Below, one piece after another: positions 2,238 through 27,701 of a stretch of 64,000 bases of DNA. The first letter of the stretch is position 1; each line of letters begins with the position of its first letter. Both the position numbers and the translations under genes were made by a program. A model generated the notes under the pieces. The model did no database searches and was not told where the DNA came from. It saw only the letters and a program-made list of their open reading frames with translations. Location: the NCBI RefSeq assembly GCF_054482595.1, contig NZ_CM137008.1; one strand, 5' to 3'.

Positions 2238-3020
2238 ATGAGCCAACAGAGACCTGACCGTATCAAACAGATGCTGCACTACCTGTGGCAACATCGTCAC
2301 CTCTCCACACAGCAGGCCATGGAGCTTTTTGGCTATGCGGAGGCGACTGTCCGTCGTGATTTTCAGTATATTGCCAACCAGTACCCAGGCATGATCCGCG
2401 GTCACGGTTGTCTCGACTTCGACGACAGTACTGACGACAAAGAGTACGTTTTCGATGTGAAACGTACATTGCAATCTGTGGCGAAGAGAGAAATAGTCGC
2501 CCTTGCCCGAACGATGATCAAAGATGGCGACTGCTTTTTTCTCGACTCCGGCTCAACCTGCCTCGAACTGGCGAAATGCCTGGCCGATGCACGGGTGAAG
2601 GTCTCCTGCAACGACATTAAAATCGCCAATGAGCTGGGCTGTTTTCCCCATGTGGAAAGCTATATTATCGGTGGACTGATTCGCCCGGGGTATTTTTCGG
2701 TAGGAGAGAGTCTGGCGCTGGAGATGATCAATGCCTTTTCCGTAGAACGTGCGTTTATCTCCTGCGATGCGCTGTCGCTGGAGACGGGGATCACCAATGC
2801 CACCATGTTTGAGGTCCGGGTGAAAACACGGATTATTCAACGCTCGCGTGAAGTTATTCTCATGGCCGAACACTCAAAATTTGATGCCGTTGAGCCGCAT
2901 GCTGTAGCAACACTCTCATGTATTAAAACGATCATTAGTGACAGCGGGTTACCTGAGACTATTGCACAGCGTTATCAGCGAGCCGGATGTCAGTTGTTTT
3001 TACCTCATTCAATAAAGTGA
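2238..3020 (+). CDS. sgcR: DeoR-family transcriptional regulator SgcR
   Basis: N-terminal HTH plus DeoR C-terminal sugar-phosphate domain; sequence from MSQQRPDRIKQMLHYLWQHRHLSTQQAMELFGY matches my recollection of K-12 SgcR. Confidence 0.8.
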   Translation: MSQQRPDRIKQMLHYLWQHRHLSTQQAMELFGYAEATVRRDFQYIANQYPGMIRGHGCLDFDDSTDDKEYVFDVKRTLQSVAKREIVALARTMIKDGDCFFLDSGSTCLELAKCLADARVKVSCNDIKIANELGCFPHVESYIIGGLIRPGYFSVGESLALEMINAFSVERAFISCDALSLETGITNATMFEVRVKTRIIQRSREVILMAEHSKFDAVEPHAVATLSCIKTIISDSGLPETIAQRYQRAGCQLFLPHSIK

Positions 3021-3392
3021 TAGGTAAGTTCGTTCGAGAGGGATTTCAAGCAAAAACAATCAATGGCACCCAATAGAAAATATTGGCGATGTGCTCGAAC
3101 GAATAAAGAAGCCCTATGCGCAATCCACACGCTACGATGTTGCAACAACACTCCATCTACTTTTTATTCTCATTCACTAAATGTGGCTGTTCTGGATTCA
3201 TTATTCAAAGTGTGTACAAGATCACATTTAATCACTTCATTACGGTTCAGCATGCTGAACAAAGCATATTTTCCACTATGTAATGCCGATACCATTTATT
3301 CCATGAGCAAGGAGGAGCCATTATGGTTCGCAAAGGGGGTGATGCTGCCAACTTACTGATTTAGTGTATGATGGTGTTTTTGAGGTGCTCCA

Positions 3393-3668
3393 GTGGCTTC
3401 TGTTTCTATCAGCTGTCCCTCCTGTTCAGCTACTGACGGGGTGGTGCGTAACGGCAAAAGCACCGCCGGACATCAGCGCTATCTCTGCTCTCACTGCCGT
3501 AAAACATGGCAACTGCAGTTCACTTACACCGCTTCTCAACCCGGTACGCACCAGAAAATCATTGATATGGCCATGAATGGCGTTGGATGCCGGGCAACAG
3601 CCCGCATTATGGGCGTTGGCCTCAACACGATTTTACGTCACTTAAAAAACTCAGGCCGCAGTCGGTAA
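3393..3668 (+). CDS. insA: IS1 InsA
   Basis: 91-aa product [43 protein letters not shown]... is the canonical IS1 InsA. Confidence 0.95.
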
Positions 3669-5235: not shown

Positions 5236-7203
5236 ATGTCTGTTCGCCATATTTTTGCTGACGAAAGTCGCGATATCTACACCGTCAGAACCCACGCCGA
5301 TGGCCCTGACGGAGAACTGCCGCTTACGGCGGAAATGCTCATCAACCGCCCGAGCGGGGATCTGTTCGGGATGACCATGAATGCCGGAATGGGCTGGTCC
5401 CCAGACGAACTGGATCGGGACGGTATTCTACTGCTCAGCACGCTGGGAGGGTTACGCGGGGCAGACGGTAAGCCCATCGCGCTGGCGCTGCACCAGGGTC
5501 ACTACGAGCTGGATATCCAGATGAAAGCGGCCGCGGAGGTCATCAAAGCGAACCGTGTCCTGCCCTATGCCGTGTATGTTTCCGATCCGTGCGACGGACG
5601 AACTCAGGGTACGACGGGTATGTTTGACTCGCTACCGTACCGTAATGACGCCGCCATGGTGATGCGTCGTCTAATCCGCTCTCTGCCCGATGCGAAAGCC
5701 GTCATTGGCGTGGCGAGCTGCGACAAGGGACTTCCGGCCACCATGATGGCACTTGCCGCGCAGCATGACAAAGCGACGGTGCTGGTGCCCGGTGGCGCGA
5801 CGCTACCCGCAAGGGATGGGGAGGATAACGGCAAGGTGCAGACCATCGGCGCCCGCTTCGCCAATGGCGAGTTATCGCTACAGGATGCCCGCCGTGCGGG
5901 TTGTAAAGCCTGCGCCTCCTCCGGCGGCGGCTGTCAATTTCTGGGCACCGCCGGGACATCGCAGGTCGTAGCCGAAGGATTAGGACTGGCCATCCCGCAC
6001 TCAGCACTGGCCCCTTCCGGCGAACCGGTGTGGCAGGAGATAGCCAGAGCCTCCGCGAAGGCGGCGTTGAACTTATGTAAACAAGGCATCACCACCCGGG
6101 AAATACTCACCGATAAAGCGATTGAGAATGCGATGACGGTCCATGCGGCGTTCGGTGGTTCAACAAATCTGTTGCTGCATATTCCGGCGATTGCCCATCA
6201 GGCCGGCTGCCATATTCCAACCGTTGACGACTGGATCCGCATCAACAAGCGGGTGCCCCGACTGGTAAGCGTACTCCCCAATGGTCCGGTTTATCACCCG
6301 ACAGTGAATGCCTTCATGGCGGGAGGTGTGCCGGAGGTGATGCTGCATCTTCGTAGTCTGGGATTGCTGCATGAAGACGTGATGACGGTCACCGGCAGCA
6401 CGCTGAAAGAAAACCTGGACTGGTGGGAGCATTCCGAACGGCGTCAGCGGTTCAAACAGCTTCTGCGCGAACAGGAGCAGATCGATGCCGACGAGGTGAT
6501 CATGTCGCCACAGCGGGCACGGGAGCGCGGCCTGACCTCAACGATCACTTTCCCGGTGGGCAATATTGCCCCGGAAGGGTCGGTTATCAAATCCACCGCC
6601 ATCGATCCCTCGGTGATTGATGATCGGGGCATCTATTACCATAAAGGCGTGGCGAAGGTTTATCTGTCCGAGAAAAGCGCGATTTACGATATCAAGCACG
6701 AGAAGATTAAAGCGGGCGATATTCTGGTCATCATCGGCGTTGGCCCTTCCGGCACCGGGATGGAGGAAACCTACCAGGTCACCAGCGCCCTGAAACATCT
6801 GTCCTATGGCAAGCATGTTTCACTGATCACCGATGCGCGTTTCTCGGGTGTTTCCACGGGAGCCTGTATCGGCCACACAGGGCCAGAAGCACTGGCCGGA
6901 GGGCCAATCGGTAAATTACGCACCGGAGATATTATTGAAATTAAAATTGATTGTCGCGAGCTTCAGGGCGAAGTCAATTTCCTCGGAACCCGTAACGATG
7001 AAACATTACCCTCACGGGAGGAGGCCACCGCAATATTAAACGCCCGACCCAGTCATCAGGATTTACTTCCTGATCCTGAGCTGCCCGATGACACCCGACT
7101 CTGGGCGATGCTCCAGGCGGTAAGCGGCGGGACATGGACGGGTTGTATTTATGATGTAAATAAAATCGGCGCGGCCTTGCGCGATTATATGAATAAGAAC
7201 TGA
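5236..7203 (+). CDS. yjhG: D-xylonate dehydratase (IlvD/EDD family), YjhG/YagF-like
   Basis: IlvD/EDD-family protein starting MSVRHIFADESRDIYTVRTHADGPDGELPL, with CDGRTQG and SCDKG motifs; near-identical to remembered YjhG. Confidence 0.85.
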   Translation: MSVRHIFADESRDIYTVRTHADGPDGELPLTAEMLINRPSGDLFGMTMNAGMGWSPDELDRDGILLLSTLGGLRGADGKPIALALHQGHYELDIQMKAAAEVIKANRVLPYAVYVSDPCDGRTQGTTGMFDSLPYRNDAAMVMRRLIRSLPDAKAVIGVASCDKGLPATMMALAAQHDKATVLVPGGATLPARDGEDNGKVQTIGARFANGELSLQDARRAGCKACASSGGGCQFLGTAGTSQVVAEGLGLAIPHSALAPSGEPVWQEIARASAKAALNLCKQGITTREILTDKAIENAMTVHAAFGGSTNLLLHIPAIAHQAGCHIPTVDDWIRINKRVPRLVSVLPNGPVYHPTVNAFMAGGVPEVMLHLRSLGLLHEDVMTVTGSTLKENLDWWEHSERRQRFKQLLREQEQIDADEVIMSPQRARERGLTSTITFPVGNIAPEGSVIKSTAIDPSVIDDRGIYYHKGVAKVYLSEKSAIYDIKHEKIKAGDILVIIGVGPSGTGMEETYQVTSALKHLSYGKHVSLITDARFSGVSTGACIGHTGPEALAGGPIGKLRTGDIIEIKIDCRELQGEVNFLGTRNDETLPSREEATAILNARPSHQDLLPDPELPDDTRLWAMLQAVSGGTWTGCIYDVNKIGAALRDYMNKN

Positions 7204-7309
7204 AAGCAAAAATAAAAACATCCAGACACCTGAATTATCCGGTTACGCATTATTCATCCTGTGCGCAGCCGGATAATGACGGGTCGTTACCCTATGATGA
7301 GAGGACGTT

Positions 7310-8659
7310 ATGCCACTAATTATCGTTGTGGCAGGGATTGCTTTACTCCTGCTTTTAACCATAAAAATTAAGCTTAATACGTTTGTTTCGTTAATTATTG
7401 TCTCGATTGCTGTCGCCATCGCCAGTGGTATGGATTTGAGTAAAGTCGTCACCTCAGTCGAATCCGGACTTGGCGGTACGCTGGGCCATATTGGTTTGAT
7501 ATTTGGGTTCGGTGTTATGCTCGGTCGCTTGCTGGCCGATGCGGGGGGGGCGCAGCGAATAGCGCTGACCATGCTGAATTATTTCGGGAAAAATAAACTT
7601 GACTGGGCAGTGGTCTGTTCGGCGTTTATTGTCGGTATCGCACTTTTTTTCGAAGTCGGTTTAATTCTTCTGGTACCTATTTTATTCGCTATTGCCCGTG
7701 AAGCAAAAATATCACCGATGTTTATGTGTGTGCCGATGCTTTCCGGTTTGCTGGTCGCACACGGTTTTTTGCCGCCGCACCCCGGCCCGACAGTAATCGC
7801 CAGAGAATATGGTGCTGATGTAGGATTGGTACTGATATACGGTATCATTGTCGGCATTCCAACCTTTATTCTTTGCGGCCCGGTATTGAATAAATTCTGC
7901 CAGCGCATTATTCCGGAAGCCTTTAAAAAAGAGGGGAATATAGCCTCTCTCGGCGCGACCCGCCGGTTCAGCGAAAGCGAAATGCCTGGCTTTGGGATCA
8001 GTTTTCTCACGGCAATGCTGCCGGTGATCCTGATGGCGGTTGTCACCATCATCCAGATGACTCATGCCAAAAGTGCCGCGGATTCAGGCTTATTCTACAA
8101 CGTGCTACTGTTCTTAGGTAATTCGACGATCGCCATGCTGATTTCACTGCTGTTCGCGATCTATACCATGGGCCTGGGGCGCGGGAAAACAATCCCTGAC
8201 CTGATGGATTCTTGCGGAAAAGCTATCGCGGGTATTGCCGGTCTGCTGCTGATTATCGGTGGTGGTGGTGCATTCAAGCAAGTTCTCATCGACTCTGGCG
8301 TTGGTCAGTATATTTCCACCCTGGTTTCGGGTATGGATATTAACCCGATCCTGATGGCCTGGGGCGTGGCCGCATTCCTGCGTATTTGTCTGGGTTCAGC
8401 CACCGTCGCGGCGATCTCTACCGCCGGTCTGGTCATCCCATTGTTGGCAGTACATCCCAATACCAACCTGGCCTTGATTACGCTGGCTACCGGTGCCGGA
8501 TCCTGTATTTGTTCTCACGTTAACGATGCCAGTTTCTGGATGATTAAAGACTTTTTTGGCCTGACCACCAAAGAAACGCTGTTATCCTGGACGCTGATGT
8601 CCACACTCTTATCCATCAGTGGGCTGATTTTTATTCTGCTCGCCAGCTTAGTTTTATAA
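7310..8659 (+). CDS. yjhF: GntP-family permease (sugar-acid:H+ symporter), YjhF-like
   Basis: 449-aa polytopic membrane protein of the GntP type; position downstream of yjhG matches the K-12 yjhF arrangement. Confidence 0.8.
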
Positions 8660-9005
8660 TCGGGTTCTTGCCAGTGAGCCAACCTGTTGTTCACTGTCCC
8701 CCATAATTTAGTGAGTGACGGCAACCGTCTGCACGGTGACGAATCGCTGGCGATCAAAAAGGGGCGATATTGAACCGTCGATTATGCTTGTTGAGTGTAC
8801 TCTCAGTAATACTGTAAAGCCGGAGCATGTCTCCGGCTTTACAGTATGGGGGAACAGCGGGAGATCGCTCAAATGGTATGCTGGTTTATTTCATGTAAAA
8901 GAATAAAATATCTGTATAAAATCATGCCACTGGCAATCTGCATCAACTCTCCGGGTAAACAGGGTTAAGATGAGCATTTCCCCGGTTTAATACAGGTATA
9001 CAAAA

Positions 9006-9992
9006 GTGGATAGAGATCAAACAAACAGCAGCCTGTTCAATGATGATCCCGTACTTCATGCAACATGGCTGTACTATCAGGAAGGCAAAAGCCAGACTGA
9101 AGTTGCAGCTATCATGGGGGTGTCCCGCGTCACGGTTGTCAAATACCTGCAAACAGCCCGGGAAAATGGACTGGTTCATATCAACCTGGATGTGAATGTC
9201 TTTGGCTCTATCGACGCTGCTTTGCAAATTCGCGATAAATTCAATCTCCTGAGAGTGATCATCGTGCCGGATGGCGAACATGCCGGAAAACGTGATGATA
9301 CAAAGCTGATGCGGACTCGCCTTTCACGTGCCGGTGGCATGTATCTGAATCAGGTGATTGAGAATGGTGATGTGCTGGGGGTTGCCTGGGGAAGAACAAT
9401 CCATCAGATGAGCAAAACCATGACGCCGAAGTCATGTAAAAATGTCACCGTTATACAGATGCTCGGTTCCATGCCATCTCAGCCAGACCTGACGATCATT
9501 GAATCCTCATCGCAAATCGCCTACAAGCTTTCAGGCCGTGTCGCTTCGCTGCACGTGCCCGCCGTGGTATCAAGCGCCAGACTGGCCATGGAGTTACAGG
9601 CAGAGCCTATTATTCGATCGAATTTTGACGTTCTGACTCGCTGTACGAAAGCCTTTTTTGTCGTGGGTAACACGCTTGATGAAAATCCCCTGATTCGGGT
9701 GGGCGTGCTGAATAAGAAGGAAATGCAGACGTATCGAGATTTAGGCGCAGTAGGTGTCATTTGTGGCCGCTTCTATGACAAGGAAGGGATGCCCGTCGTG
9801 GCTGATGTTGACCAGCGTATTCTGGGAATCAGTCTGGCTCAGTTAAGGCAGATTGAACGGAAGATCTTTCTTGCTGGTGGCGAAAGAGGCTATGACGCAA
9901 CGTTGGGTGCCTTGCTGGGAGGATATGTCACTGACCTGATTGTTGATGAAGGAACGGCAGAGTTTTTGCTGGCGTGTGAATTACCACACTAA
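9006..9992 (+). CDS. yjhU: SorC/DeoR-like sugar-binding transcriptional regulator, YjhU-like
   Basis: N-terminal HTH (SQTEVAAIMGVSRVTVVKYLQTARENGLV) followed by a SorC-type sugar-phosphate-binding domain; GTG start as given by the ORF track; position after yjhF matches K-12 yjhU. Confidence 0.7.
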   Translation: MDRDQTNSSLFNDDPVLHATWLYYQEGKSQTEVAAIMGVSRVTVVKYLQTARENGLVHINLDVNVFGSIDAALQIRDKFNLLRVIIVPDGEHAGKRDDTKLMRTRLSRAGGMYLNQVIENGDVLGVAWGRTIHQMSKTMTPKSCKNVTVIQMLGSMPSQPDLTIIESSSQIAYKLSGRVASLHVPAVVSSARLAMELQAEPIIRSNFDVLTRCTKAFFVVGNTLDENPLIRVGVLNKKEMQTYRDLGAVGVICGRFYDKEGMPVVADVDQRILGISLAQLRQIERKIFLAGGERGYDATLGALLGGYVTDLIVDEGTAEFLLACELPH

Positions 9993-11782: not shown

Positions 11783-11812
11783 TACTGCTCCTTAACAGAA
11801 GTGATCGTCGTT

Positions 11813-12928
11813 TTAATGCAGCTCGTCCTGGAGTGCTTTACTCTTCAGGTCAGCAAACATATCCGCCAGAGCTGACTTACTGGCAGCACAGACTCCCCGT
11901 TCAGTAATGAGGCCGGTAATGTATCGGGCAGGCGTGACGTCGAAAGCGTAGTTCCCACAACGGGTTCCTTCAGGGGCGGTATTGACCCAGCTCAATTCTC
12001 CCTGAGTATTTATCCCATAGACATGGGACTGCTCTTTTCCGTCACGTTGCTCAATCGGAATGGTTTTTCCGTCCTCGATAGTCCAGTCAATAGTGGGAGA
12101 AGGTAACGCGACGTAGAAGGGAACATGGTTATCATGGGCCGCCAGCGCCTTAAGATAGGTACCAATTTTATTACAGACATCCCCTCTGGCCGTGGTTCGA
12201 TCGGTCCCCACTATACAGAGATCAACGTCACCGTGTTGCATCAGGTGGCCACCCGCATTGTCGGCAATCAGGGTGTGAGGAATACCGTGTGAACCCAGTT
12301 CAAATGCCGTGAGTCCACCCTGATTACGTGGCCGCGTTTCATCCACCCAGACGTGAACAGGGATTCCGTTTTCATGCGCTTTATAGATGGGAGAAAGCGC
12401 GGTTCCCCAGTCTACAGTCGCCAGCCAGCCTGCGTTACAATGTGTCAGGATATTGACCACACTCCCGGCCGATTTTTTCTGGGCTATTTCGCGGATGACT
12501 TCTGCACCATGTAATCCAATTTGTTCACACAACGCGACATCTTCCTCGGCAATTTCTGCCGCCAGCGCCCAGGCCACATCCTTGCGCTCTGATACACAGA
12601 GATCCTTCAGTGTGGCTATCATCCTGTCGAGAGCCCATTTGAGGTTAATTGCAGTTGGTCGGGTTTTGATAAGAAGGTCATAGTAACGCTGCAGACCTAC
12701 GTCACTGGCATTGTGGTTCATTCCCAGTGCGATACCATATGCCGCAACGACACCAATAAGCGGGGCGCCACGAACCCACATCTCCTGAATAGCCGCAGCG
12801 GCCATTTCCGCAGAGGTAAGCGCCACCACTTCAAACTTAAAAGGCAGCTTAGTCTGATCGATGATCTCTACCGCTTTTCCATCCCCGGAAACCCAGACCG
12901 TTCGGTAGTGTTTACCTTTAATATTCAT
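11813..12928 (-). CDS. mtnA: 5-methylthioribose-1-phosphate (5-deoxyribose-1-P) isomerase
   Basis: 371-aa eIF-2B alpha/beta/delta-family protein ([39 protein letters not shown]) typical of MtnA. Confidence 0.85.
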
Positions 12929-12937
12929 AATGACCTC

Positions 12938-14197
12938 TTACTTAACCTTCGCAGACTGGATGACGGAGTCCATATTTTTAAACTGGCGGGCATTGACAAT
13001 AAGATCGCGCGCCATGGTCAATGCACGTCGTTCACATTCTGCGCGAAGCTCTGTATTTTCAATCTGTTTCAGCTCGGCAACGCCAGCAAAACCAATGATC
13101 CGGCGATTCATTTCCATGCCGGCATTCACCAGGGAATCTTCAAGCAGCGTGGCAAAAAACTGATCCTGTGCGTCCTCAAGAGCGGCCCTGTTCTGTTGAT
13201 ACATTTCTGTCGGCCACGCGTCACCCTGTGTTTTGTTGTCCCAGAGCTGGCGGAACTCCCGGGTGAAAACTGACCAGGTGTGGACAATCTGCTGAAGTAG
13301 CCATTCCTGATAGTCAGCGCGACGTTGCTCATTTGCATCCCACCCAGGGCGTGAGAAGAACGCCAGCAGGAGGTTGCCAATATAGTTGCCGATATCAAAC
13401 GCCATTGGTCCCATGAAACCGAACTCCGGATCAATCACTTTGGTATCCGTGTCGGTCACCATGATTGAGCCTGAATGAAGGTCACCATGTAACAATGCCT
13501 GCGCTTCTGTCATAAATTTGTACTTATAACGCATGGCAACCTGGAGCATCTCTACATCAGCCCAGGCCTTATGGACGGCATCGTCCAGCTCAGGAGAAGT
13601 CCAGTTATTCCGTTCCGCGTTGTAATAGGGCTCTGTGAAGATCAGATCTTCCGTAATTTTGCACAGCTCATGATTTAACGCGAACTCAGCAGTAAGCGCT
13701 TTTTTCTGTTCTGCTGACATGCCAATGTCAGACGTATTAAAGAGAGTCTGTGCTAAAAATCTGCCGATATCTTCAGCTAGCTTAGGGAATTTTTTACCGT
13801 TAATCAGTCCCTTACGCAGAATTACGTGAGGCGTCAAATACTCCATGGCAAACAGTGCCATTTCCGGGTCATAAAAATAGACCTGGGGAATCAGTGTGTG
13901 ACCCGCGTACTTGGCTTCCTGACATAAGACGTTGTACTCAAAGCCCGCACGGCTCAGAGATAAAGGCCATCCTTCGCCCCCTGCACGAAGCCAGGGCAGA
14001 GCTTGTTTTACAATGATGGTTTTATGTGTCCCCTTAACGATAAACACCATGTTCAGGTTTCCGTCCCCCACTTCTGAAACTTTCCACTCTTCTGGTAACC
14101 CTCCCGGTTCGCATGAAGGGGTCAGTCTGGACGAGAGATAACCAGGCAGCGTGTCACATGTCAGCGGCTTGTAACCTGATGGAATTGAATCCGTCAT
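12938..14197 (-). CDS. mtnK: 5-methylthioribose / 5-deoxyribose kinase
   Basis: 419-aa protein-kinase-like fold with MtnK hallmarks (EVGDGNLNMVF, HGDLHSGSIMV, KVIDPEFGFMGP). Confidence 0.85.
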   Translation of the reverse strand: MTDSIPSGYKPLTCDTLPGYLSSRLTPSCEPGGLPEEWKVSEVGDGNLNMVFIVKGTHKTIIVKQALPWLRAGGEGWPLSLSRAGFEYNVLCQEAKYAGHTLIPQVYFYDPEMALFAMEYLTPHVILRKGLINGKKFPKLAEDIGRFLAQTLFNTSDIGMSAEQKKALTAEFALNHELCKITEDLIFTEPYYNAERNNWTSPELDDAVHKAWADVEMLQVAMRYKYKFMTEAQALLHGDLHSGSIMVTDTDTKVIDPEFGFMGPMAFDIGNYIGNLLLAFFSRPGWDANEQRRADYQEWLLQQIVHTWSVFTREFRQLWDNKTQGDAWPTEMYQQNRAALEDAQDQFFATLLEDSLVNAGMEMNRRIIGFAGVAELKQIENTELRAECERRALTMARDLIVNARQFKNMDSVIQSAKVK

Positions 14198-14711
14198 AAC
14201 AGTTCTCCTTGTCTACACAGAATGATAACTGACTTATCATATGGCAACTATACTTTATCATGTGTAAAGTAATTTGTGATGCATGTAGATTTTTTGAACT
14301 GGAGAAAATTAAAAATAATGTTGTATGGAGTCATGATCTTTACAGGAATTAGTAGGGTGCATTCCTGTTATTTATATAAAATTCATTGTATTACATAAAA
14401 ATGACGGTGCTGCGCGGGGAATTGTCTCGGGCAATCTTAGACGAAAGGAAGTATTGAAGTGACAGAATAATCTACATTTTTTATACATGTGTATTTTTCT
14501 GTTGTCTTTTGTTTTTAGCGTATGGTGTTTTTATGCCGATGTCTAATAGACAGATAGATTCGAGGGCCAACAGCCCCATTATCATGATGGAGCAACAGAG
14601 GTGAGTCTAACGTTTCCGTACTTCTTATCGATCGGCACTAACAATCCTTTGTGATAACGGTATTCCCACACAGAGAAACCCACGTACCTGAATAAAAAAA
14701 AGATTACTGGT

Positions 14712-15130
14712 GTGGAAATGGGATTAACAGATTATGCCATCAAATCGGATGGTAATGAGGTCAATAATCCTCGTCATCTCATTAACGTCAACTGTAATCT
14801 GCGACGCAAATTAGCCAGCATGATGAATAACAAACACAATCTGGCAAGAGCGTTAGGTGATGCTGATTGGCACGGCTTTATCAACAAACTGGAGTACAAG
14901 GCAGCCGAAAAAGGCGTTCATCTGGTAAAAATCGACCAGTAGTTTGTCTGTTCGAAAAGCTGCTATTGTTGTGGTTACAAAATGTCGCTTCAAAAACGGA
15001 TCTGGCGATGCCCTGAATGCGGTGTTGAACATGACCGGGATATAAATGCGGCAATCAACATAAAACTTAAAGACATACAGGAATTAAAGGCGGCGGGCCC
15101 CGTCGTCTCTGTCTATGGAGGAGCTGCGTA
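14712..15130 (+). pseudogene. tnpB: IS200/IS605-family TnpB C-terminal remnant with an in-frame TAG stop
   Basis: Single reading frame gives ...AEKGVHLVKIDQ*FVCSKSCYCCGYKMSLQKRIWRCPECGVEHDRDINAAINIKL...; the zinc-finger and RuvC-III region of TnpB is present, the N-terminal ~2/3 is absent, and there is an in-frame TAG at 14940-14942. Confidence 0.7.
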
Positions 15131-15395
15131 AACCCGTCGTACAGACGGTTGCAGCCTGAAAAGTGGGAAGGCCTTGCCCGATTGGGCGGGGAGTAGTCAC
15201 CCTTGGAGTCATTTTTATCCGGTGTATTAATATGCTCCTAATAGTTAATCTGGTTATAATATTTTTTTTTTGATTATGATCACGAAAATATCTCGGTTTT
15301 TATTTGCAAAACTTGAAACGTGAATCCAAAAAAGATAAATATTTGTCCGCAGTGACTTCTTTTCTGTTGAAAAGTTCAATCTAAAGGGCAAAAAA

Positions 15396-16508
15396 ATGAA
15401 AAAAATTACAGTGGCACTTTCTGTGGTTGCGGCATCTGTTCTGATGGCAATGTCTGCACAAGCGGCAGAAATCTATAACAAAGACGGTAACAAACTGGAT
15501 CTGTACGGCAAAGTTAATGCAGAGCATTACTTCTCTTCTTCAGCTAGTGATGACGGGGATAAAACTTATGCTCGTATGGGTTTCAAAGGTGAAACTCAGA
15601 TTAATGACCAGTTAACCGGTTTTGGTCAGTGGGAGTACGAATTTAAAGGTAACCGTACTGAAACTGAAGGTTCTGATAAAGATAAAACTCGTCTTGCGTT
15701 TGCAGGGCTTCGCTTTGGCGATTATGGTTCGCTCGACTATGGTCGCAACTACGGTGTAGCTTATGATGTTGGCGCTTGGACTGACGTGCTGCCGGAGTTT
15801 GGTGGAGATACCTGGACTCAGACTGATGTATTTATGACCCAGCGTGCTACTGGCGTAGCGACCTATCGTAACAATGATTTCTTCGGCTTGGTTGATGGTC
15901 TGAACTTTGCTTTGCAGTATCAAGGTAAAAATGATAGTGCTGCAAAAGTGAATAACTGGAAAGGCCGTGACGAAGTTGAATCTAATGGTGATGGCTTTGG
16001 TCTGTCAGCTACTTACGATTATGAGGGATTTGGCGTTGCTGCAACCTATGCAAAATCTGACCGTACTGATGGGCAGGTATCCTATGCTAAAGACAGCCCT
16101 CTGAATGCCTCTGGTAAAACTGCTGAAGTATGGGCTACGGGCCTGAAATATGATGCAAACAACATTTACCTGGCTGCAACTTATTCTGAAACTCAGAATA
16201 TGACAGTCTTCGGTGATGACCATATCGCAAACAAAGCGAAAAACTTTGAAGCTGTTGCTCAATACCAGTTTGATTTCGGCTTGCGTCCGTCCATCGCTTA
16301 CCTACACTCTCGCGGTGAAAATATTGGTGCGTTCGGTAACCAGGATCTAGTTGAATACATCGACGTAGGTGCGACTTATTACTTCAACAAAAATATGTCC
16401 GCTTTCGTTGACTACAAGATCAACCTGATTGATGAAAGTGAATTTACCAAAGCATCTGAGGTTGCAACCGACAACATCGTTGCTGTTGGTATGACCTACC
16501 AATTCTAA
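15396..16508 (+). CDS. Outer-membrane general porin, OmpC/OmpF/PhoE family paralogue
   Basis: Signal peptide followed by [17 protein letters not shown], conserved porin motifs ([25 protein letters not shown]) and C-terminal ...VAVGMTYQF; a Rho-independent terminator follows. Confidence 0.9.
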
Positions 16509-16663
16509 TTTTGGTAGGTAAGAATATGCGGGAAGGGAGTGATGTCACTGCCCGCATATAGGTGGCACCCTCATGCCACCTTTGAAGAGGCAATTTTATT
16601 GCCTCTTCTCAATTTAACTTCATGTTATTTATTACCCTTTTATTGATTTGAAACTCTATTGTT

Positions 16664-16690
16664 GGGGCGCTTTGTTGCGCCCATTTTTTT
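16664..16690 (+). terminator. Rho-independent terminator downstream of the porin gene
   Basis: GGGGCGC-tttgtt-GCGCCCC stem-loop followed by ATTTTTTT; a second perfect hairpin GAAGAGGCAA-tttta-TTGCCTCTTC lies at 16584-16608. Confidence 0.7.
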
Positions 16691-16742
16691 ACACCAATTA
16701 GGTAAAGTTATTTTTAAGTAATCGAGCAACTTGATCCTACCC

Positions 16743-17975
16743 ACGTAATGTGGACACGGCCCTAAGCGAGATTATGGTTTTCAAATTGTTCCGGGCTGAG
16801 ACCGCCACAGGCACTGTGACGACGCCAGCGATTGTAATCACACTCGATATAATTAAACACCGTTGCCCGCATTATTTCCCGGCTGCTAAAGCGTTCCCCG
16901 TGGATACATTCCACCTTCAGCGAATGAAAGAAGCTTTCCACACAGGCATTGTCATAACAGTAGCCTTTCGCACTCATACTGCCACGCAGGTTGTGTCGCT
17001 TCAGCAGCGCCTGATAATCCCCTGAACAGTATTGACCACCACGGTCCGTATGAACAATGACGCTTTCCGGGCGTCTTCTCCGCCACAACGCCATTTGCAG
17101 TGCATCACAGGCCAGTTGTGCTGTCATTCGCGGTGACATCGACCAGCCAATGACGGCGCGTGACCACAGGTCGATGACTACTGCGAGATACAACCAGCCC
17201 TCATCGGTACGCAAGTACGTGATGTCACCCGCCCACTTCTGGTTCGGGCCACTGGCGCTGAAGTCCTGCTCCAGCAGATTCTCCAATACGGGCAGACCAT
17301 GTGCACGGTAGCTGACCGGGCTGAACTTCCGGCTGGCTTTCGCCCGCAGCCCCTGACGACGCAGGCTGGCGGCAATGGTTTTAATATTGAACTCCGGCAG
17401 TTCGTCAGCAAGGCGGGGATCACCGTATCGCTGCTTTGCCTCAAAGAATGCCTTATGGACAGCGGCATCGCAGGTGAGCCGAAACTGTTGGCGCAGGCTC
17501 ATCTGGTGACGACGCCTGAGCCAGACATACCAGCCGCTGCGGGCAACCCGAAGTACACGACACATCGCTTTGATGCTGAACTCTGCCCGATGATTTTCGA
17601 TGAAGACATACTTCATTTCAGGCGCTTCGCGAAGTATGTCGCGGCCTTTTGGAGGATGGCCAGTTCCTCAGCCTGCTCCGCCAGTTGTCGTTTAAGGCGG
17701 ACATTTTCAGCGGCCAGTTCGCTTTCGCGCTCTGACGAACTCATTTGTTGCTGCTGTTTACTGCGCCAGGCATAAAGCTGAGATTCATACAGGCTGAGTT
17801 CACGGGCTGCGGCGGCCACACCGATGCGTTCAGCGAGTTTCAGGGCTTCGTTACGAAATTCAGGCGTATGTTGTTTACGGGGTTTCTTGCTGATTGATAC
17901 TGGTTTTGTCATGAGTCACCTCTGGTTGAGAGTTTACTCACTTAGTCCTGTGTCCACTATTGGTGGGTAAGATCA
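16743..17975 (-). mobile_element. IS3-family insertion sequence (IS3-like), ~1.23 kb, orfA/orfB with overlapping frames
   Basis: Terminal inverted repeats TGATCCTACCCACGTAATGTGGACAC (left) and GTGGACACAGGACTAAGTGAGTAAACT...TGATC (right, reverse strand); OrfA (17613-17912) is IS3 InsE-like and OrfB (16762-17616) has the DDE integrase core; the two ORFs overlap as expected for a -1 frameshift. Confidence 0.9.
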
Positions 17976-18244
17976 CGGCGGGGTTAGGTGCGTGCGCTGA
18001 ACAAAATGACGAAGGTAGGAATGCCAGAAAGCGTGCGTATTGCCTGACGGTAGCAACCAGCTGAAGGGATGCTTATCCCCAAACCTGATTTATTCAACAA
18101 AGCCGCTATAGCCTTACCAGAACAATCACCACCTCCCCTGGAGGTGGTCAAGAATACAGCTCTGGCGAGCCGCATACCTTTAATTACCTGCTCTGATTAG
18201 ATAAATCAGATGCAGGTACATAAGTATGCCAGCATTATATGCAA

Positions 18245-19435
18245 TTAACGTTTCCGTCCTGGAAATACAAATAGTGCAATAACGGGAGATATTACCATCA
18301 GAACAAAAACATAGGTAAATCCAAGTGTAAATCCGCCTGTTAGATCGACCGACCAGCCAATTAACTGACTGTTTATCGTTGCCAAAATAAATGTACAAAC
18401 CCAGAAGGTGGACATTGAATAAGTAACAGTTTGGGTATTCGCATTTTTTTGTTCTTCTTTTGGAATGGAGAAGATGAATGCAAACCAGGTGGCAAAAATA
18501 GAACCCGTCAAAAACGAACAAACCAATATAACGATATCATTAGTGGCAAATAACATTGCAAAGGTTGTAATAGCCATAAAGATACTGGAAATAAATAGCC
18601 ATGATTTATAATTATACCCACGGTTTTTAAAGTACGGCCCCATCAATGCACCAAGTAAAATTCCCACCTGATTGACTGTGCCACTCAAGTGAGCACAGGA
18701 GTCAGGGGGAAGATTAGCATATTTTGCATAGTACAGAGGCAGAAATGTGAACATAAAAATCATCATGATCATTGCCCCAGCATACTGAATAATCATTCCC
18801 CAGACAATACGATTAAACAATACATCCTTTAATACAGATATTCGCTGTTCATAACTTATAGATATATGGCTATTCTGTTGTTGCTCTTCATCCGTGAAAC
18901 ATATTATCCAGACAACCCCCAATATTAACGTAATTATTCCATAGATAGCTAACAGATTACGCCACCCGTTGAACAGCAGTGATAAATAACCTGCCAATGT
19001 CAATGCAATAATTGTACCGATAATATTTGAAGTGCAATTTATACTATTTAATGTTGACGCCATTTTGTTATCGAAAAAGCGAGCAACCGTGGGCACCAGT
19101 GATACAAGGCAAATAGCCCCCCCCAGCCCACCAAGAAAACGAATAATCAATAACAAAGTAAAGTTATTAATAAATGGAATGAGCAAGGAGCTCCCAATCA
19201 TTATACATCCAAGAAAATAGGATTTTCGGGTGCCGAGCCGGGAAACAAAGACTGCAGTACAAACAGCTCCCACAATTTTAGCCCATAAAATTACATTTGA
19301 CATCAATGCAGCATGTGATACATCAACATTAAAATCACTCATAATTTGTGGCATTACGGCCCCTGTCGTAGCCCAGGCGGCACCAAATACCATATAAACG
19401 GTGTAAAGAATGAATTCAATGACCCATTTTTTCAT
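18245..19435 (-). CDS. MFS transporter
   Basis: 396-aa protein with ~12 predicted transmembrane helices; low-GC codon usage; start overlaps the stop of the upstream peptidase gene by 4 nt. Confidence 0.7.
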   Translation of the reverse strand: MKKWVIEFILYTVYMVFGAAWATTGAVMPQIMSDFNVDVSHAALMSNVILWAKIVGAVCTAVFVSRLGTRKSYFLGCIMIGSSLLIPFINNFTLLLIIRFLGGLGGAICLVSLVPTVARFFDNKMASTLNSINCTSNIIGTIIALTLAGYLSLLFNGWRNLLAIYGIITLILGVVWIICFTDEEQQQNSHISISYEQRISVLKDVLFNRIVWGMIIQYAGAMIMMIFMFTFLPLYYAKYANLPPDSCAHLSGTVNQVGILLGALMGPYFKNRGYNYKSWLFISSIFMAITTFAMLFATNDIVILVCSFLTGSIFATWFAFIFSIPKEEQKNANTQTVTYSMSTFWVCTFILATINSQLIGWSVDLTGGFTLGFTYVFVLMVISPVIALFVFPGRKR

Positions 19436-20685
19436 TTTTGTACCTCAGGGACACTTAGCTCAACCATTTCCAGCAGCATTTCACTGGCAAGACGCAGGGA
19501 TTCCACAGGCAAAAACTCTCTGGTTGAGTGAAAATTGTGCGCCCCTGTAAATATATTAATAGTAGGCAGCCCTTTTGGGGTGATGACGCTACCATCATAA
19601 CCACCGCGCATAATCAGTGGTTTTGGTGTAATGCCAAGGTTACGCATTGCCTTTCTAACGTTATCTAAGATTGCAGGTGTTTTATCAAGCGCTGGTTTGA
19701 CATTTTCATATATATCGGTTAACACTAATGTTATTCTTTCACTCTTCCAGCGCTGATTAATACTCTTAACAATGTTCTCGAGTACGGCTTTACGTTGTTT
19801 ATATCCTGTTAACTCAAAGTCCCGAATAGCAATATCAAGCGTGGCGCTGGCTGTATCACCATGGAGATTATGGACCCAATAATATCCTTCCCGTTTTTCA
19901 GTATGCTCAGGCCTTTCTTTTTCAGGTAATGCGGCGATAATTTCCGTTGCTATACACAACGCATTAACAAGCTTACCTTTAGCACTCATTGGATGTGCTG
20001 TAACACCACGAACTGTAATTCGTGCACTACCTGCATACCAGTTTTCAACAACATATTCTCCAATCTCACAACAGTCGAGACAGATACCAAAATCAGAATT
20101 CAGTTCACCAACATCAAGCGCTTTTGCCCCTCTGATACCGGTCTCCTCATCAGGCAAAAGAACAAGACGAATATCACCATGAGAAAAGGAGGGTGTATTA
20201 ATCATATATTTGAGAGCTTCAACACCTGCTGCAATGGCAGCTTTGTCGTCAGCCCCCAGCAAGCTGGTGCCATCAGTTACAATAATATCCTGACCGATAT
20301 AGTTGAGTAGTTCTGGATTATCCTGTGGGGATAGTTTTTCCACACTCCCTGCAAACGGTATAGCACCTCCGTTATACTTTTTCACTCGGAAAGCATGTGT
20401 ATCTGTACTGTGGTCCGGAGCTGTATCAAGGTGTGCAAAGAATACGATAGAAGGTGCATCAGGAATATTAGCGGGTAAATGAATTGTGGCAATAGCATTT
20501 TCTTTTATGCTTGTTTGTACCTCTGGAACATCAGAAAATTGATTTACAACATATTCTGCCAGTTTATATTGATTTTTACAGCTTGGAAGCTCCTTGCTAC
20601 CATCAACCGATGTCGTATTTATTTTTGTGTAATATAAAAAAGTCTCAATTATTTTCTCTAAGTCAATGCGTTTTTTCATGATCAT
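19432..20685 (-). CDS. M20-family metallopeptidase, peptidase T (tripeptidase)-like
   Basis: 417-aa protein with M20 metal-binding and catalytic motifs (FFAHLDTAPD, LGADDKAAIAAGVEAL, LLPDEETG); low GC. Confidence 0.75.
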   Translation of the reverse strand: MIMKKRIDLEKIIETFLYYTKINTTSVDGSKELPSCKNQYKLAEYVVNQFSDVPEVQTSIKENAIATIHLPANIPDAPSIVFFAHLDTAPDHSTDTHAFRVKKYNGGAIPFAGSVEKLSPQDNPELLNYIGQDIIVTDGTSLLGADDKAAIAAGVEALKYMINTPSFSHGDIRLVLLPDEETGIRGAKALDVGELNSDFGICLDCCEIGEYVVENWYAGSARITVRGVTAHPMSAKGKLVNALCIATEIIAALPEKERPEHTEKREGYYWVHNLHGDTASATLDIAIRDFELTGYKQRKAVLENIVKSINQRWKSERITLVLTDIYENVKPALDKTPAILDNVRKAMRNLGITPKPLIMRGGYDGSVITPKGLPTINIFTGAHNFHSTREFLPVESLRLASEMLLEMVELSVPEVQK

Positions 20686-20889
20686 ATACCTAATTGTTTA
20701 CTATCAATATCCTGACTATCTATATTTAGATAATATCCTGCAAAAATTAGTGAGTATAGAAAAGGTCGTCAGTTCCTGACTGGTAAATGTCCCTTCGAGA
20801 TTTATTAGAGTCATAATTTGCCTCATCCCAATACAAAAAACAATACGAAAGTATGAAAAAGTGTAGTGATCAACAAAATATTGCCACGT

Positions 20890-20967
20890 TTGTTTCGGTG
20901 TTATTGGAGAGGTTTTTGGTGTTTTGTCCTTACGAGCATCACGCAGTTGTTTGCCCCATCTTGTCAT
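20890..20967 (-). pseudogene. IS911-like OrfA fragment
   Basis: Translation [26 protein letters not shown] matches the central region of IS911-type OrfA; the rest of the ORF is not transposase-like. Confidence 0.45.
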
Positions 20968-21120
20968 CGTGGAAAGGCGACATCAATAGCTTGGTGTAAC
21001 TCTGGTCAACAACCAGTTGCACGGAGTTGCATATGAATTCAGGAGCTTTTCACTGGTGCACCTATATTGGCATATCTGAACCGCCCCGGAAATCCTGGAG
21101 ACTAAACTCTCTGAGAAAGA

Positions 21121-26162: not shown

Positions 26163-27428
26163 TTACTGTTTTAATGGATTATTAATCTTTGCATATTCAA
26201 ATGGACTGATAAATTTTTCTCTGTTTGCATCCAGAAAATCGGCCCACCATTGTAGCATCAAGCGGCGTTCTTCCAGATGCTCTGCTTTATGAATGTAAGC
26301 AGCACGTACACCGTTACGTTCCTGATGGCTCATCTGACGTTCCACAGCATCGCGGGACCACAAACCTGATTCAATCAATGCACTGCACGCCATCGCCCGG
26401 AATCCATGGCCACAGACTTCCTGGGTTGTGTCATACCCCATCACCCTCAGGGCTTTATTTACAGTATTTTCACTGATTGGTTTACGCGGGTCATGTGCAC
26501 CCGTAAATATCAGACCATTTTCACCTGCCCATGTCTGAAGTTCTGTCAGTATGGCTACAGCCTGTTTGCTGAGTGGCACAAGATGTGGTGTTCGCATCTT
26601 GGAGCCCCGGTGTGAGAATTTTACGCCTGGCAGAGGTTCGCGTTCGGCTGGAATAGTCCACTTGGCATTGTCAATATCAATTTCAGACCAGCGGGCATAT
26701 CTGAGTTCACTGGAACGAATAAAAACCAGTAAATTCAGCATAACTGCCAGTCGGGTGACAGGCTGGCCTTTATAACCGTCAATACGCGACAGAAGTTCAG
26801 GCAAGCGTGAAAGATCCAGAGCAGGGCGATGCTGGCGTTTTACCGTGGTCAATGCACCAGCCATATCCAGAGCCGGGTTATATCTGATGATGCCTGACTG
26901 TACGGCATAACGCATTACAGCAGATATTCTTTGCTGCAGACGACTGGCGATTTCATAAATTTGTTTTGCTTCTGCAGCACGAACAGGGATAAGCAGATCC
27001 GGGGTATTGAGTGTTGTGATATCCCGGTTGCCGATAAAGGGGAAAACGTGTGTCTCGAGGCTTTTGAGTACTTTATCGCTGTGTGATTGTGCCCATTGTT
27101 TATTACTGGCATGCCAGCGTCGTGCAATATGTTCAAAAGAGAGCTGTAAATCAGGGACAACTTTTTTAACTCTTTTCTGTTCGCAAGGGTCAATCCCTTC
27201 TGAAATCAGTTTTCGGGCCTCATCCCGTTTTGTACGAGCTTCGGAGAGAGAAACTTCTGGATACACACCAAGTGCCAGAGTCTTCTCCTTACCCAGAATA
27301 CGATAACGGAGACGCCAGTAACGGGAACCATTAGGATGAACCAGCAGGAACATGCCGGCCCCGTCAGTGAGTTTATAAGCCTTGTCAGTGGGCTTTGCAG
27401 CCCGGATTTTTGCGTCAGTCAGTGCCAT
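26163..27428 (-). CDS. int: Tyrosine site-specific integrase, P4-type (island integrase)
   Basis: 421-aa protein with the P4-integrase N-terminus MALTDAKIRAAKPTDKAYKLTDGAGMFLLVHPNGSRYWRLRY and the C-terminal catalytic domain; lies ~200 bp from the 3' end of tRNA-Phe. Confidence 0.95.
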   Translation of the reverse strand: MALTDAKIRAAKPTDKAYKLTDGAGMFLLVHPNGSRYWRLRYRILGKEKTLALGVYPEVSLSEARTKRDEARKLISEGIDPCEQKRVKKVVPDLQLSFEHIARRWHASNKQWAQSHSDKVLKSLETHVFPFIGNRDITTLNTPDLLIPVRAAEAKQIYEIASRLQQRISAVMRYAVQSGIIRYNPALDMAGALTTVKRQHRPALDLSRLPELLSRIDGYKGQPVTRLAVMLNLLVFIRSSELRYARWSEIDIDNAKWTIPAEREPLPGVKFSHRGSKMRTPHLVPLSKQAVAILTELQTWAGENGLIFTGAHDPRKPISENTVNKALRVMGYDTTQEVCGHGFRAMACSALIESGLWSRDAVERQMSHQERNGVRAAYIHKAEHLEERRLMLQWWADFLDANREKFISPFEYAKINNPLKQ

Positions 27429-27625
27429 AGTTCAGCCTTCTGAATGCGTTAAAGAGGGTACAAATTCTGTCGAACTGGGGTATACCCGCAATTATACCCA
27501 CACAATGAGGTTGATGTGGGGGGAATCTGGTTGAGTTCGGTAGAATTGATTTGGAGGCAGAACGCTTAAATTGTGGCGTTCTGAAACGAAAAACGGACCT
27601 CCGTGGAGGTCCGTTGATATGAATT

Positions 27626-27701
27626 TGGTGCCCGGACTCGGAATCGAACCAAGGACACGGGGATTTTCAATCCCCTGCTCTACCGACTGAGCTATCCGGG
27701 C
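27626..27701 (-). tRNA. pheV: tRNA-Phe (GAA)
   Basis: Reverse complement reads GCCCGGATAGCTCAGTCGGTAGAGCAGGGGATTGAAAATCCCCGTGTCCTTGGTTCGATTCCGAGTCCGGGCACCA, which is E. coli tRNA-Phe with CCA end. Confidence 0.97.

Follow-up and report, generated by a model that had tools for sequence, protein, structure and literature searches.

A probable P7-type porin cassette with an IpeX-like 3' untranslated region in an Escherichia pheV island

Which porin does a genomic island carry when its annotation reads OmpC, and what might that porin bring to the cell? The question is raised by a 64,000-nucleotide (nt) stretch of contig NZ_CM137008.1 (NCBI RefSeq assembly GCF_054482595.1; hereafter the window), in which a porin gene at 15396–16508 lies between the remnant of one insertion sequence (IS) and the end of another. 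An earlier note on this DNA had described a complete general porin gene, and the uninterrupted reading frame of 370 amino acids (aa) with a full-length Porin_1 match bears this out. Sequence comparison indicates that 15211–16731 is probably a copy of a self-contained 1.5-kb cassette, comprising a porin and an IpeX-like element, which circulates among temperate phages, P1-like phage-plasmids and Escherichia islands. Three parts would make up this cassette: a sigma-70 promoter, accompanied in the relatives by a CRP site in a class I position; a general-diffusion porin with 16 strands, of the P7 type within the NmpC/Lc/OmpD clade; and a 182-nt structured 3' untranslated region (3'UTR) homologous to IpeX, a small RNA (sRNA) of 167 nt from the prophage DLP12 and phage PA-2 (PMC12197685, PMC5069750, PMC8065619; also PMC3333887, PMC5745476). 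The features of the cassette are as follows.

15211–15395, plus strand: retained upstream region of the cassette, 185 bp; homology to P7 starts at 15211, directly after the IS remnant.
15269–15284, no strand assigned: degenerate CRP-type site TTTGAttatgaTCACG with two core mismatches, orthologous to TGTGA-N6-TCACA.
15313–15342, plus strand: putative sigma-70 core promoter (TTGAAA at 15313–15318, 18-nt spacer, AAATAT at 15337–15342), proposed from conservation only.
15396–16508, plus strand: porin coding sequence, 370 aa, free of frameshifts and internal stops; TAA stop at 16506–16508.
15396–15464, plus strand: signal peptide of the porin, 23 aa, cleaved between AQA and AEIYNK; an identical length is annotated in the P7 record.
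15409–15415, plus strand: CAGTGGC, complement of the RybB seed, in codons 5–7 of the porin.
16509–16690, plus strand: IpeX-like structured 3'UTR, 182 nt, between the porin stop and the end of the terminator.
16524–16559, 16561–16580 and 16584–16608, plus strand: hairpins 1, 2 (loop CCCTCA) and 3 of the 3'UTR.
16624–16640, plus strand: conserved single-stranded stretch GTTATTTATTACCCTTT in the 3'UTR.
About 16641–16664, plus strand: 24-nt insert specific to the P7 type, before the terminator; absent from nmpC and E. fergusonii.
16665–16682 plus T7, to 16690, plus strand: canonical Rho-independent terminator.
16691–16731, plus strand: right end of the shared cassette, 41 bp of P7-homologous DNA beyond the terminator.

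The porin falls outside the OmpC lineage. Its protein is 97.6–97.8% identical to P7 NmpC and the porins of P1-like plasmids, 88% to the porin at the E. fergusonii yedS locus, approximately 80% to NmpC/Lc and 78.7% to Salmonella OmpD; the values are 63% for PhoE, 61.1% for K-12 OmpC, 61% for OmpN and 58% for OmpF. In a neighbour-joining tree, the porin is nested in the NmpC/Lc/OmpD clade, apart from OmpC and OmpN. The E. coli O157:H16 strain Santai, which shares the region, possesses an intact native ompC at apbE-ompC-rcsD, whose product is 58.6% identical to the window porin. Given the distinct clade and this intact native ompC, the gene in the island encodes an additional porin of a different, phage-associated lineage. 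An orthologue of E. coli ompC was accordingly rejected on the basis of the tree, the identity of 59–61%, the non-ompC locus and the lack of a signal with an OmpR matrix. Nor is the gene a near-identical duplicate of ompC (58.6–61% identity) or frameshifted, two outcomes that had been considered at the outset. Of the earlier assignment to the OmpC family, the broad part stands: the porin scores 532 bits with the NCBIfam OmpC model NF007841 (cutoff 484), a hidden Markov model of the type 'subfamily', over model positions 5–368 of 368. The phylogeny, however, places it with NmpC, Lc and OmpD, at 97–98% identity to the P7 porin. Proteins of the NmpC/OmpD type also receive the name 'OmpC' from this model, and the Prokaryotic Genome Annotation Pipeline (PGAP) labels the window gene 'porin OmpC', under which name the protein is already in RefSeq. 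The porin remains below the NCBIfam equivalog cutoffs for PhoE and OmpF. E. coli OmpC thus resembles it in superfamily, fold and constriction residues and in passing the same subfamily model, but differs in clade, in locus (apbE-ompC-micF-rcsD) and in its OmpR sites C1–C3, which were not found at the window porin. Salmonella OmpD belongs to the sister group (79% identity), and for ompD both activation by CRP and regulation by sRNAs, RybB among them, that act within the coding region have been reported; unlike the window gene, ompD is a core chromosomal gene at yddG-ompD-smvA with a short, unrelated 3'UTR that contains no IpeX-like element.

The protein has the attributes of a general porin. 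The Pfam Porin_1 profile (PF00267) covers it in full length (493 bits, residues 29–370 against profile positions 1–337 of 337), and it matches the solved chains of OmpK37, OmpC, OmpK36, PhoE and OmpF with E-values from 1e-135 to 1e-106. The NmpC/Lc/OmpD clade contains no solved structure, and the nearest solved proteins are OmpK37, Omp36 and OmpC. An AlphaFold2 model comprises 16 strands, with a mean predicted local distance difference test score of 72.8 and low confidence in loops L3 and L4. The C terminus, ...TYQF, ends with the aromatic residue. The constriction residues K16, R37, R76, R127, D107 and E111 (precursor K39, R60, R99, R150, D130 and E134) are all kept; in OmpC numbering they correspond to the basic K16, R37, R74 and R124 and to the acidic D105 and E109 of L3, and all six are identical. 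The PEFGG motif is also retained at precursor residues 133–137. A comparison of the surface loops, which the earlier note had proposed together with the phylogeny, located the variable part of the protein there: the strands, periplasmic turns and L3 are mostly 80–100% conserved across the clade, whereas the external loops L1, L2, L4, L5, L7 and L8 are only 50–67% conserved and contain the insertions and deletions. Relative to the P7-type proteins there are 8–10 differences, most of them in L4, L5, L6 and L8. The rates of synonymous (dS) and nonsynonymous (dN) substitution relative to P7-type genes are approximately 0.10 and 0.012, giving a dN/dS of 0.10–0.12, and the dN/dS relative to the E. 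fergusonii gene is 0.08. The gene is intact and, on this substitution pattern, under purifying selection, and the combination of a conserved pore with variable loops is the sequence signature of a functional general porin with a diversifying surface.

The region downstream of the stop codon aligns end to end with the 3'UTR of nmpC in DLP12 (approximately 63% identity) and is 97.8% identical to that of P7, being better conserved than the synonymous sites of the adjacent gene (dS 0.10). Its predicted minimum free energy is -68.4 kcal/mol (z -6.8 versus shuffles). An alignment was assembled from eight sequences, namely the window, P7, E. fergusonii, a lambdoid prophage, K-12 DLP12 nmpC, a Mu-associated copy and two other islands. 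The loop of hairpin 2, CCCTCA, is invariant in it, and a GTTATnTAnTnCCnTTT block ahead of the terminator is conserved. Across the alignment, 94% of the cells of the named structure are paired, and 10 double-sided compensatory pairs were counted, compared with 5.5 +/- 1.4 in shuffles (1 of 500) and 0–3 in slid controls. Hairpin 3 forms in seven of the eight individual folds despite differing sequence, the exception being the Mu-associated copy. By position, sequence and structure as compared here, the 3'UTR is an IpeX homologue. The strong terminator described in the earlier note is indeed canonical, but it is merely the end of this longer 3'UTR. IpeX is reported to be transcribed from the porin promoter within the porin mRNA and then processed, and to repress OmpC and OmpF (PMC12197685, PMC5069750, PMC8065619). 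The NmpC (DLP12) and Lc (PA-2) systems share with the window copy approximately 80% porin identity and the order of a porin gene followed by a multi-hairpin 3'UTR and a Rho-independent terminator; compensatory changes maintain hairpins 1–3, and the systems have the single-stranded block and the RybB seed site in common. The reported outcome in these systems is that the new porin is made while OmpC and OmpF fall (PMC12197685, PMC5069750, PMC8065619). They differ in that their genes occupy the interval from Q to the lysis genes in lambdoid phages, in that the nmpC CRP core is degenerate with a different sequence, and in that the window 3'UTR carries the 24-nt insert before the terminator that DLP12 IpeX does not have.

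The element had gone unflagged because IpeX is absent both from Rfam matches, where no family reached the gathering score, and from the annotation of the K-12 RefSeq record. Two known sRNAs were considered and rejected. GcvB (RF00022) gave a full-length match below threshold (28.4 bits versus 42), a score attributed to its comparable arrangement of hairpins and terminator and to a short R2-like stretch. RseX (RF01401) scored 25.5 bits against a gathering score of 50, whereas true rseX genes reach 98 bits in K-12 and 69 bits in E. fergusonii. RseX, a reported repressor of OmpC and OmpA, resembles the element in its association with a porin locus and in a shared 15-nt core, TTATTA[G/C]CCTTTTAT, which lies in the 24-nt insert and the preceding block (16624–16664; shuffle p 0.01–0.02). 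Bona fide rseX is, in contrast, a separate gene upstream of porin 1 at yedS in K-12 and E. fergusonii.

The cassette recurs as a unit on phage-plasmids. P7 nmpC (AF503408, AAQ07495) and the P1-like copies carry the same 1.52 kb at 95.3–95.5% DNA identity, and the signal peptide, the core promoter hexamers and the 3'UTR are shared as well. They differ from the window copy in their setting, a phage-plasmid instead of a chromosomal pheV island with IS cuts on both sides, and in a CRP core that is perfect in P7 and degenerate in the window. The survey covered 5,426 complete E. coli genomes, plasmids additionally from PLSDB, and a phage collection. DNA of approximately 95% identity was found on about 100 plasmids of 90–115 kb in the genome set and on 113 PLSDB plasmids. 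These plasmids have the gene content of P1-like phage-plasmids, and their porin is annotated ompC, ompD or nmpC. The P1-like backbone (ssb-lyz-pro region) occurs in approximately 506 of the genomes, and about 100 of these plasmids, roughly one in five, have the cassette. In the phage collection, P7 and two other P1-like phages matched best; the P7 record places the gene between odaA/hxr and ssb under the annotation 'nmpC, NmpC precursor'. The cassette in P7-type elements presumably occupies the position at which P1 has IS1. The identity to P7 is patchy, being approximately 100% at 15511–15810, 85% at loop L5 and 73% in the distal promoter.

The chromosomal arrangement seen in the window is rare, occurring in approximately 12 of the 5,426 genomes with at least 99% identity. 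The region is 100% identical to the Santai chromosome and to seven other complete genomes, and in these eight genomes from different hosts the porin reading frame and the 3'UTR are without a single difference. Santai is identical to the window across 11800–21000 and 99.6% identical over 23.5 kb to the left of tRNA-Phe. Collinearity ends at 27648; beyond tRNA-Phe, the window continues into the speC/nupG/mltC core flank, and Santai into a CP4-like island. The window thus derives from a carrier other than Santai, and in the aligned chromosomes the same island sits in different surroundings. Since collinearity stops at tRNA-Phe, a second 'porin' and DUF4886 pair of Santai lies outside the window.

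Other members of the clade occupy the lambdoid Q-holin gap, a lambdoid tail module, a position beside a Mu-like transposase, and IS-rich islands. A 371-aa member (74% identical; locus 2501–3616) lies between a minor tail protein gene (gpM-like) and a gpL-like gene of a lambdoid prophage, a moron position that differs from the classical Q-holin gap. The islands of E. coli 17MR471 (locus 7903–9182) and JML285 (7912–9181) carry mosaic porin genes, in which a signal peptide, last strand and IpeX-like 3'UTR of the P7 type (91–92%) enclose a barrel and loops of the NmpC/Lc type (55–83% in the middle). This observation suggests, from the pattern of identity, recombination within the cassette. A porin–IS3 junction shared with these two islands was ruled out; the homology ends differ (16689 and 16717), and the junctions therefore arose independently. 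In E. fergusonii, the yedS locus (approximately 5950–9280 in each of four loci) contains drpB, rseX, porin 1, porin 2, a TrkH-family gene and hchA. Porin 2 is the closest chromosomal relative of the window porin (88%) and has an IpeX-like 3'UTR, and the phage porin lineage may have originated on the chromosome at this locus. The picture that emerges from these comparisons is of a cassette family that appears to move and recombine among temperate elements.

The control region is the part in which the window copy departs most from its relatives. The retained 185 bp are 83% identical to P7 (155/187). Within them, the first 100 bp (15211–15310) reach only 73%, against approximately 97% for the gene and 98% for the 3'UTR; this segment holds a T10 run and the two CRP-core mismatches. 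Relaxed constraint, or recombination with another partner, could account for its divergence. P7 has approximately 740 bp of intergenic DNA upstream, the remainder of which is missing from the window and has the IS remnant in its place. The CRP-type palindrome is perfect at the same position in P7, in the P1-like pCFS3292-3, in E. fergusonii and in the Mu-associated copy (P0073), and its core has two mismatches in the window copy, nmpC and ompD. In all relatives the site lies at -119 from the ATG, with its centre 36 nt upstream of the -35-like hexamer, which would place it at approximately -72 from the probable transcription start, a class I position. Sites with up to two mismatches occur at a background of about one per 2 kb, and the degenerate site is consequently meaningful only through orthology. 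Activation of ompD transcription by CRP has been reported (PMC5137417). The core promoter hexamers, the Shine-Dalgarno sequence and the signal peptide are all preserved in the window copy, and TTGAAA is kept at -83/-82 in the window, P7, E. fergusonii, nmpC and the lambdoid copy. A -10 element matching only 3/6 positions, which is why a consensus sigma-70 scanner called no plus-strand promoter upstream of the gene, would fit dependence on an activator. Because the promoter-distal 100 bp have diverged, the IS remnant has taken the place of all DNA beyond them, and the CRP core carries mismatches, regulation of the window copy may differ, with weaker or otherwise controlled expression than in P7-type elements.

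The earlier note had also perceived several GAAAC-type half-sites reminiscent of OmpR boxes in 15290–15395. This segment contains a single GAAAC (15315–15319), inside the conserved -35-like TTGAAA, and no GTTTC. A 20-bp matrix was built from the K-12 sites C1–C3 and F1–F3, and six upstream regions were scanned against shuffles. No clade member exceeded the shuffles, and the best window match (p=0.08) lies on the minus strand at -167, away from the GAAAC. The six-site matrix discriminates poorly (leave-one-out -17 to +14), so this result argues against OmpR control without disproving it.

RybB is a sigma-E-dependent sRNA, and for every Escherichia-type member of the clade RNAduplex predicts pairing of -13.9 kcal/mol at one and the same position, the seed complement, with a modest shuffle p of 0.02–0.06. 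The same method also recovers the GCAGTGGCA sites in the ompC and ompF leaders. nmpC has been reported as a RybB target (PMC3333887).

The island setting and the two IS neighbours named in the earlier note were recovered at the following positions.

14642–15210, plus strand: TnpB remnant of the IS200/IS605 family, a pseudogene at about 14642–15160 plus about 50 bp of GC-rich DNA on its 3' side; left boundary of the cassette.
16732–17975, minus strand: ISEc16, IS3 family, complete, 1,244 bp; orfA 17613–17912 and orfB 16762–17616, with programmed frameshift.
26163–27701, minus strand: island boundary, with a tyrosine integrase gene at 26163–27428 and tRNA-Phe (pheV) at 27626–27701.

The tRNA gene is pheV, as its right flank holds speC, nupG and mltC. 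In the TnpB remnant, a 76-aa fragment of an open reading frame (ORF) matches the NCBIfam families guided_TnpB and IS200_TnpB, and RefSeq labels it an InsQ/TnpB pseudogene that is frameshifted and N-terminally truncated or incomplete; 15161–15210 would be the right end of the IS200/IS605 element. The remnant is restricted to the same approximately 12 genomes as the porin arrangement. The homology to P7 and pCFS3292-3 spans 15211–16731/2 (1.52 kb) and ends exactly at both IS ends, its right end adjoining the first base of the ISEc16 inverted repeat. ISEc16 has matching terminal inverted repeats, TGATCCTACCCACG... and ...CCCACCAATAGTGGACACAGG (reverse complement), and no target-site duplication was found at its ends, where the flanking triplets are ACT and CGG. 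A composite transposon or a simple IS insertion was ruled out, given unrelated flanks (the IS200/IS605 remnant and ISEc16) and no duplication. The coincidence of the cassette ends with two IS ends and the missing duplication therefore imply an IS-mediated rearrangement: one or more recombination or deletion events placed or trimmed the cassette, which did not arrive by simple transposition. To the left of the remnant, mtnA and mtnK (methylthioribose-1-phosphate isomerase and methylthioribose kinase, of methionine salvage; 11813–14197, minus strand) have counterparts of approximately 95% identity in other E. coli genomes, with homology ending at approximately 14646, the start of the remnant. 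At the orfA/orfB overlap of ISEc16 (17540–17640, minus strand), a weak match to the Rfam ALIL pseudoknot (21 bits versus 50) fits the programmed -1 frameshift annotated for its IS3-family transposase.

By analogy with DLP12 and PA-2, transcription of the cassette would yield the new porin, and its 3' end, processed or within the transcript, would lower production of the host's own OmpC and OmpF. The cell would then exchange its major porins for the imported one, and the docking of phages and colicins and permeation would shift. RybB, via the retained seed match, would still switch the porin off under envelope stress. A benefit to the carrier through exclusion of OmpC- or OmpF-dependent phages and colicins, or through altered permeability, is plausible on the same analogy.

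Several observations weigh against this proposal. The CRP site is degenerate in the window and not significant by itself, and the promoter, with its weak -10, escaped the scanner. The 3'UTR shares only approximately 63% identity with DLP12 IpeX and has the 24-nt insert, and the covariation test comprised eight sequences, several of them closely related. The location of IpeX was taken to be the DLP12 nmpC 3'UTR, with exact ends assumed from the description in reviews. IpeX shows no simple complementarity to ompC (PMC12197685), and any activity of the window variant on OmpC and OmpF is thus putative.

The main rival is that the cassette is an intact but transcriptionally silent relic, an IS-stranded passenger with no role in the envelope. 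Silence is realistic, given that nmpC of K-12 and ompN are 'quiescent' porins. Prilipov reportedly described them so in 1998, and both are quiescent in laboratory E. coli. The two mismatches in the CRP core, the promoter-distal 100 bp at 73% identity to P7, the upstream region cut to 185 bp by the IS remnant, an AT-rich flank of the kind generally typical of H-NS-silenced acquired DNA, and the restriction of the arrangement to approximately 12 of 5,426 genomes would all be expected of such a relic. Yet eight genomes from different hosts share an intact ORF and 3'UTR at 100% identity, and the core promoter hexamers, Shine-Dalgarno sequence and signal peptide have been preserved. The low dN/dS mostly reflects history before the move and speaks neither for nor against silence. 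On balance, a silent relic seems unlikely, while being the alternative that deserves most weight. Less probable still is that the hairpins of the 3' region merely protect and terminate the porin mRNA, thereby stabilising it, and have no role in trans. Three stacked hairpins with a terminator do resemble a barrier to 3'-exonucleases, and the lack of simple complementarity between IpeX and ompC (PMC12197685) would agree with such a role. A pure stability element, however, needs its stems alone, whereas here the single-stranded U/A-rich stretch and the CCCTCA loop are conserved in sequence while the stems covary, and the homologous element of DLP12 and PA-2 has reported trans activity on OmpC and OmpF.

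It is very improbable that the gene is an OmpC paralogue under OmpR and osmolarity control, adding a second OmpC-like channel. Such a paralogue would account for the score with the NCBIfam OmpC model (532 versus 484 bits), the PGAP name and the one upstream GAAAC. It conflicts with the identities (61% to OmpC versus 80% to NmpC/Lc and 98% to P7), with the separation from OmpC and OmpN in the tree, with a C1–C3/F1–F3 matrix that yielded nothing above shuffles and its best match away from the GAAAC, and with the lack of a micF-like divergent partner. The studied member of the clade, ompD, is not known to depend on OmpR. Its activation by CRP has been reported (PMC5137417).

Returning to the mobile cassette, its distribution and mosaicism permit a more ambitious, tentative reading, which we regard as possible but doubtful: the P7-type cassette could be an autonomous, recombining 'porin-swap module', whose IpeX variant, with its additional segment containing the 15-nt core also seen in RseX, may have altered or broadened targets relative to DLP12 IpeX. 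P1-like phage-plasmids, lambdoid phages and islands could then trade variants of the barrel and loops by way of conserved ends, formed by the promoter and signal peptide at one end and by the last strand and IpeX-like RNA at the other. If this were true, a phage-plasmid present in approximately 2% of sequenced E. coli, or a chromosomal copy, could reprogramme the major porins of its host, with effects on susceptibility to phages and colicins and on the entry of beta-lactams.

The annotation of the P7 gene is two decades old, papers refer to it only as an annotated gene, and phage-borne NmpC/Lc porins and IpeX are already known. The principle of a porin combined with IpeX is likewise not new, having been described for DLP12 and PA-2. 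No paper linking IpeX to P1/P7-type elements was found in the literature searched. What is added here is that the P7-type porin of about one fifth of P1-like phage-plasmids has the same layout, conserved by covariation, and that this layout is also stranded in chromosomal islands, hidden there by the PGAP name 'porin OmpC'. Recognising it in both settings, the P7-type cassette and the islands, extends this knowledge modestly. For annotation, the gene should not be counted as ompC in surveys of resistance or porin loss, where the PGAP name could inflate ompC counts, and the 3'UTR deserves a non-coding RNA feature. Porins govern entry into Gram-negative cells, and many phages and colicins dock on them. 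A mobile porin joined to an RNA related to an OmpC/OmpF repressor could change the antibiotic permeability and the phage and colicin receptor repertoire of its host in one step.

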